Assembly: GCF_018350175.1 (NCBI RefSeq)
Contig: NC_058369.1
Span: forward strand, 157,294,001 to 157,358,000
Length of the DNA stretch: 64,000 nucleotides
Direction of reading: 5' to 3'
From: Felis catus
Taxonomy: Eukaryota
Translations under genes and position numbers: made by a program
Notes under the pieces: generated by a model
What the model was told of the DNA's origin: nothing
What the model saw: the letters and a program-made list of their open reading frames with translations, nothing else
Database searches by the model: none
Shown: in pieces, positions 11,911-11,969 of the stretch
How the letters are laid out: the number at the start of each line of letters is the position of its first letter
Position numbering within the stretch: position 1 is the first letter of the stretch

Positions 11911-11969
11911 AGGCAAGTTCAGGGGCAGGCAGGGGGACTTTTGACACTGAGCCTTAGCAATATTTGCAT
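11911..11969 (+). promoter_or_regulatory. Candidate TAS2R60 upstream module with perfect octamer ATTTGCAT (11962-11969)
   Basis: AGGCAAGTTCAGGGGCAG...ACTGAGCC-N8-ATTTGCATC aligns with the TAS2R41 upstream sequence; 267 bp before the TM1 Asn codon. Confidence 0.55.

Follow-up and report, generated by a model that had tools for sequence, protein, structure and literature searches.

Most bitter taste receptor (TAS2R) genes of the cat genome carry a POU octamer, ATTTGCAT on the sense strand, in a fixed orientation upstream of the coding sequence, a distribution that our analysis confirms and that is wider than the three loci of the window (the whole stretch of 64,000 nucleotides under study, C2:157294001-157358000). 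From the sequence we consider it likely that this oriented octamer is the ancestral TAS2R proximal-promoter site for POU2F3, where OCA-T would be recruited and transcription licensed in type II taste cells and tuft cells. That these cells arise through POU2F3 is known; for the switching-on of TAS2Rs the literature that we searched offers no cis element, and direct control through the octamer, if true, would tie POU2F3 to its receptor genes. Our search, whose coverage leaves subscription journals largely outside, found no published description of an octamer element upstream of TAS2Rs and no papers on TAS2R start sites.

Results

The three TAS2R loci of the window are all broken by frame changes and stops, a state absent from the preliminary description of this DNA. 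The TAS2R62 pseudogene (Tas2r134/143-type; 6195..7120, +) has a single frame change near 6370 and is 82% identical to an intact hyena protein of TAS2R62 type (308 aa), and because such an intact protein exists the loss is likely felid-side. The middle locus (12127..13057, +), with several stops and frame changes, is one that we name TAS2R60-like on the basis of gene order rather than of an orthologue match. The TAS2R41 pseudogene (37186..38097, +) has ACG where its orthologues start, as well as frame changes and an internal stop; a 119-aa piece of it is 85% identical to bear TAS2R41, a piece is 95% identical to a lion protein, and the locus drew no reads in two 2026 RNA runs of which 1-2% of reads were sampled. 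In a Logan contig about 1% divergent from ours (run X17) a 1-base deletion lies upstream of this pseudogene at 37144 and its TM1 Asn codon at 37255 is changed; its octamer and TGAGC are unchanged there, at a divergence too low to test conservation. The window also holds two olfactory receptor (OR) genes, one intact (52535-53476, -, 313 aa) and one cut to 162 aa (45384-45872, -), which share 96% identity over 437 bp and represent a recent duplicate with one copy broken.

Each of the three TAS2R loci is preceded by an octamer in the sense orientation. The copies of TAS2R60 (11962..11969, +; ATGCAAAT when read on the minus strand) and TAS2R41 (36985..36992, +) are perfect and lie 267 and 270 bp before the TM1 Asn codons at 12229 and 37255, respectively, and that of TAS2R62 (5997..6004, +), 264 bp before the codon at 6261, is the variant ATTCGCAT, or ATGCGAAT on the minus strand, in which the fifth-position adenine has become G. 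Because all three genes behind them are broken, these copies are probably decaying relics. TAS2R60 and TAS2R41 have an additional one-mismatch octamer each, ATGCAAGT at 11842..11849 (+) and ATGCTAAT at 36898..36905 (+), 387 and 357 bp before the Asn codon. Further upstream of the main site stand degenerate octamers in inverted orientation: AGGCAAGT with two mismatches at 11911..11918 (+) in TAS2R60 and AGGCAAAT with one mismatch at 36934..36941 (+) in TAS2R41, both 51 bp from the main octamer; AGGCAAAA at 36919-36926, a second and weaker site of TAS2R41; and two copies of AGGCAAAT at 5945-5952 and 5960-5967 (+) in TAS2R62, 52 and 37 bp from it. The motif TGAGC occurs at 5984..5988, 11948..11952 and 36971..36975 (all +).

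All coordinates that the preliminary description had given for octamers, Asn codons, TGAGC and AGGCA prove correct, its distances (264, 267 and 270 bp) and TGAGC-to-octamer gaps (8, 9 and 9 nt) are reproduced, and the window holds exactly the seven other perfect octamers that it listed (3602, 7981, 9449, 18851, 19944, 21391 and 57417). Its interpretation fares less uniformly. The AGGCA pairs do lie where they were placed, the second copy of TAS2R60 reading AGGCAGGG, but their offsets to the octamer (-52/-37 in TAS2R62, -51/-35 in TAS2R60, -66/-51 in TAS2R41) share no common register, and AGGCAA(AT), which had been presented as a motif in its own right, is best read in the window genes as an inverted degenerate octamer. 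TGAGC, which the preliminary description included in the module of the three genes, is found in 3 of 20 genes, all of the window clade; we reject it as a family-wide motif and regard it as either a clade-specific site or residual homology.

The likeness of the flanks depends on how the regions are brought together. When the alignment is fixed at the octamer, the 60 bases preceding it in TAS2R60 and TAS2R41 score above every one of 2000 shuffles, and 17 and 40 of 2000 shuffles reach the scores of the 60/62 and 41/62 pairs; among 190 TAS2R pairs anchored in this way the three rank 3, 9 and 14, respectively. Local alignment of the 360-bp regions without an anchor gives marginal scores if the octamer is kept, with 7, 80 and 106 of 300 dinucleotide shuffles reaching the score, and scores not above such shuffles if it is masked (76, 269 and 114 of 300), so that the flanking likeness of the trio, as judged from these alignments, is modest. 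A search of the cat's own genome with the 121-bp module returned itself as sole match, and a MAFFT alignment of the trio's 500-bp regions put the TAS2R62 octamer in the wrong place and gave no information.

The argument is carried by the octamer with its orientation and position, which reverses the caveat of the preliminary description that spacing and flanks carry it. A Pfam PF05296 search of the genome (2.43 Gb) gave 40 matches, corresponding to 22 TAS2R loci, of which 13 are intact and 9 broken; on C39 and C1 we excluded weak full-length matches, most of which coincide with V1R matches, and gene labels such as T2R7 and T2R38 are presumed names. An intact TAS2R10-type gene (300 aa) at C16:45471968-45472861 brings the intact TAS2Rs here to 13; the number usually quoted for the domestic cat is 12. 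About 4 kb of upstream DNA per locus (2.2 kb for one) was anchored on the TM1 Asn codon, or on the aligned codon for the T2R16 pseudogene. A perfect sense-strand ATTTGCAT stands 244-461 bp before this codon in 12 of the 22 loci, and an octamer of opposite orientation within -500..-200 in none. Among control loci, the best-scoring 30 of 56 V1R and 30 of 138 OR matches, a sense copy at -500..-200 occurs in 1/30 and 2/30, respectively; the contrast of 12/22 with 3/60 (Fisher p 2e-6) is to be read with the facts that this window was chosen after seeing the family scan, that the genes are not independent and that one genome is covered. Extending the comparison to the other TAS2Rs, as the preliminary description had suggested, reveals enrichment beyond the trio: 10 of 19 non-window loci have the octamer, an out-of-sample figure with motif and strand preset, and when one member of a duplicate pair is also set aside (9/18) the binomial p is about 3e-12.

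The post hoc choice of window is less of a concern in view of an unbiased count of 8-mers, where ATTTGCAT is the top word with 12/22 loci and the best non-overlapping word reaches 4, and of the finding that it is also the top word over -700..-1 in 18 genes (10/18, with the trio and one recent duplicate excluded). In twelve 300-bp windows further upstream the best word is found in 3-7 genes, most such words being rich in A/T or derived from repeats, and 73.8 kb of distal upstream sequence contains three sense and three antisense perfect octamers as background. The shorter TTTGCAT occurs in 16/22 loci. A perfect sense copy within 700 bp is missing from 9/22 loci, including the intact T2R1, which has one-mismatch sites only; since no perfect octamer lies within 3.9 kb of this gene, its promoter may be further upstream. 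T2R38 is the only gene with a nearby perfect octamer in opposite orientation (-590), and five one-mismatch sites cluster upstream of it between -538 and -425. Because the octamer is family-wide, the earlier proposal that an ancestral TAS2R promoter element built on the octamer has survived old duplications gains stronger support than before, while its flanking module emerges weaker; the 264-270 bp spacing, correct for the trio, is specific to that clade within the family range of 244-461 bp.

That the octamer might be a neutral leftover of duplication, an ancestral 8-mer shared by descent or chance without function, is a reading to which we give hardly any credence. The window trio, being pseudogenes whose copies need no present selection, would suit it, as would the weak unanchored likeness of their flanks; yet blastn finds TAS2R upstream regions mostly unalignable while the 8-mer is intact in 13/22 loci, a count that includes T2R67. 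Blastn likeness persists in repeats, in a single pair of recent duplicates and in a 29-base match immediately preceding the Asn codon; what remains beyond these, between T2R42 and both T2R67 and T2R46a, consists of short stretches covering the octamer. The lineages with perfect copies are separated by protein branch lengths of 0.5-2.3 changes per site, the deep forks being weakly supported, a divergence that speaks against neutral survival, as does the binomial p given above for the 9/18 genes. We infer instead that the octamer has been kept by purifying selection, and it is probably functional in the intact TAS2R genes.

Perfect octamers are present in 10/13 intact genes versus 3/9 pseudogenes, a difference that is not significant (one-sided p 0.054). 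In alignable context, the perfect word of T2R39 corresponds to ATTTGCCT in the neighbouring T2R40 pseudogene. Every one of the 13 perfect copies retains the fifth-position adenine, as do the variants CTTTGCAT and GTTTGCAT; it is lost in the TAS2R62 pseudogene copy. In T2R67, whose sister T2R42 has its octamer at 461 bp, the octamer lies at -667, or at -434 if a 233-bp SINE between it and the ATG is discounted; this SINE is flanked by an 18-bp target-site duplication, its host gene is intact, and the insertion constitutes a natural test of how much distance the octamer tolerates. A scan of metagenome contigs for TAS2R DNA produced 69 pattern matches and no TAS2R; a degenerate TAS2R pattern on these contigs gave 12 loci, none of which resembled TAS2R regions by blastn; the two that were translated were bacterial.

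The anatomy of the element was studied in the 18 genes with an assignable main octamer, T2R46b, T2R1, T2R5p and T2R8p being excluded. In 10/18 genes an inverted octamer with at most one mismatch to ATGCAAAT precedes the main site by 10-70 bp, against 0.66 genes on average and at most 2 over 47 shifted windows, and a second octamer of the same orientation is found there in none. A GCAAAT-like inverted half-site lies at +12 from the main octamer start (10-18 range) in T2R3, 4, 10, 42 and 46a and in one pseudogene, and in none of the window genes; no offset shuffle of 2000 reaches this signal, which was identified post hoc. Together with the main octamer the half-site forms a near-palindrome that is a possible candidate for a POU dimer site. 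A forkhead reading of AGGCAAATA was rejected, as it is present in 2/18 genes against a null mean of 1.35. An E-box partner is not established: CANNTG occurs within 76 bp downstream in 10/18 genes (null mean 4.9, maximum 8), at scattered offsets and as one of 24 tests, and E-boxes of CAGCTG type in 1/18. A TATA box (TATAWA) downstream of the octamer is found in 0/18 genes within 76 bp and in 1/18 within 150 bp, which is not above null.

The octamer lies 157-384 bp before the ATG, with 1-9 other ATGs between the two. T2R1, T2R46a, T2R46b and T2R67 have a polypyrimidine tract and AG directly before the ATG, suggesting a 5' UTR intron in these genes, and given such splice-acceptor-like tracts some start sites may be further upstream. 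One could accordingly imagine that the element acts at the RNA level, in a 5' UTR or 5' intron rather than in a promoter, its strand bias reflecting a transcript signal (AUUUGCAU). The strictness of that bias (12 versus 0), the four acceptor-like tracts and the lack of TATA enrichment near the octamer would all fit, but the word matches the POU consensus exactly and is accompanied upstream by an inverted partner, octamer promoters, for example those of immunoglobulin V genes, typically have the octamer in one orientation, and the intervening ATGs agree with a start site downstream of the octamer; we judge an RNA-level role very improbable.

Discussion

Under the promoter reading that we favour, POU2F3 would bind the main octamer, OCA-T1/2 would be recruited through adenine 5, and a TATA-less proximal promoter would be opened in type II taste cells and tuft cells; a second POU molecule may occupy the upstream inverted site, and transcription would start between octamer and ATG. 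Each duplication would have carried the octamer along, and this inheritance would explain the co-expression of dispersed TAS2Rs. The requirement for adenine 5 has a published counterpart, OCA-T recruitment being described in PMC12755459 as dependent on an octamer with adenine at that position.

The motif alone cannot separate POU2F3 from POU2F1/2, and our preference for POU2F3 over another Oct factor is inferred. All class II POU factors bind the same octamer; the site, although selected, might be read mainly by the ubiquitous POU2F1 (Oct-1) or another POU factor for basal or extra-oral transcription, with specificity supplied by distal enhancers. We consider this unlikely. The human genome has in all about 25 TAS2R, 90 KRTAP and 400 OR genes. 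The POU2F3 ChIP target list of a human tuft-like lung cancer line includes 21 TAS2Rs, TAS2R41 and TAS2R60 among them, in a list of about 11,500 gene names without peak positions that also holds 16 KRTAP genes and 129 genes with OR1/2/4/5/6/8 prefixes (PMC13051935, supplementary file 3). Moreover, bitter cells are all gone on POU2F3 loss (PMC13051935, PMC10781636), and type II taste cells show selective accessibility at Tas2r loci, along with an enrichment of POU motifs in their open chromatin (PMC10239704). These observations weigh against a ubiquitous reader.

Other observations lean toward POU2F1 and distal specificity. The POU2F3 ChIP list of mouse intestinal tuft cells (3032 genes) has as its Tas2r entries Tas2r118 (+3956) and Tas2r134 (+268089), both distal, and no promoter-proximal Tas2r peak; intergenic type II-specific peaks are co-accessible with Tas2rs (PMC10239704); and for Tas2r143 a shared upstream element has been put forward (PMC5670347). 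Against our own reading, the authors of the scATAC study suggest that Pou2f3 may be a repressor in taste cells (PMC10239704), and a review states that TAS2R proximal promoters of human and rodents show no enrichment for any transcription factor site (PMC7225360). TAS2R peak data were not found in the accessible supplements of PMC6075037 (7 files), PMC12755459 and PMC9534498.

Direct control by POU2F3, which we continue to prefer, would have practical consequences. An oriented 8-bp site at a predictable place in the majority of TAS2Rs offers a one-mutation test of direct control; the octamer region becomes a candidate for a minimal bitter- and tuft-cell promoter, and the site a place to seek regulatory variants in bitter perception; and octamer decay may serve as a second marker of receptor loss in carnivores. 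We are evenly divided on the broader proposal that amniote TAS2Rs share an immunoglobulin-like promoter code, made of an oriented POU2F3/OCA-T octamer and an inverted degenerate partner and inherited with duplications. If true, this code would account for the expression of dozens of scattered bitter receptors together in a single cell type, and the level of each gene in taste cells relative to tuft cells would be tuned by the quality and spacing of its octamer.

Among published systems the closest is the conservation of Oct-like motifs upstream of TAS1R4 reported by Nishihara et al. (PMC10781636). There, too, the octamer precedes a taste-receptor reading frame by no more than 300 bp, there are two Oct-like motifs, and Skn-1a/POU2F3 was proposed as binder from sequence alone; by contrast, TAS1R4 is an unrelated class C receptor, the comparison follows a single gene through its orthologues in different species, not the paralogues of a family as in TAS2Rs, Oct motifs were not seen in the other novel TAS1Rs, and TAS2R promoters do not come up in the available portion of that paper. 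The elements of tuft-cell genes bound by POU2F3/OCA-T share consensus motif and lineage with the TAS2R octamer (PMC6075037, PMC13051935), but those described are mostly distal enhancers, and TAS2R genes have no occurrence in the main texts of the two papers. A regulatory element shared by mouse Tas2r143/135/126 concerns the same three-gene cluster (PMC5670347); it is, however, a single cluster-level element derived from histone marks and DNase sites, with its motif unnamed in the portion available, whereas the cat has a site per gene.

With an enrichment of 12/22 against 3/60, a fixed orientation and a restricted position, the TAS2R element is a candidate new member of the octamer-promoter class. 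Immunoglobulin V promoters, where Oct-1/2 and OCA-B act, have their octamer about 70 bp before the start together with a TATA-like box, and such a box downstream of the octamer is also present in H2B promoters. As in the immunoglobulin V genes, the TAS2Rs form a duplicated multigene family with an oriented octamer upstream of its members, and the likeness would extend to a cell-restricted OCA coactivator dependent on adenine 5, OCA-B being homologous to OCA-T (PMC12755459). The two systems differ in that the TAS2Rs are without TATA enrichment and commonly possess an inverted degenerate partner of the octamer.
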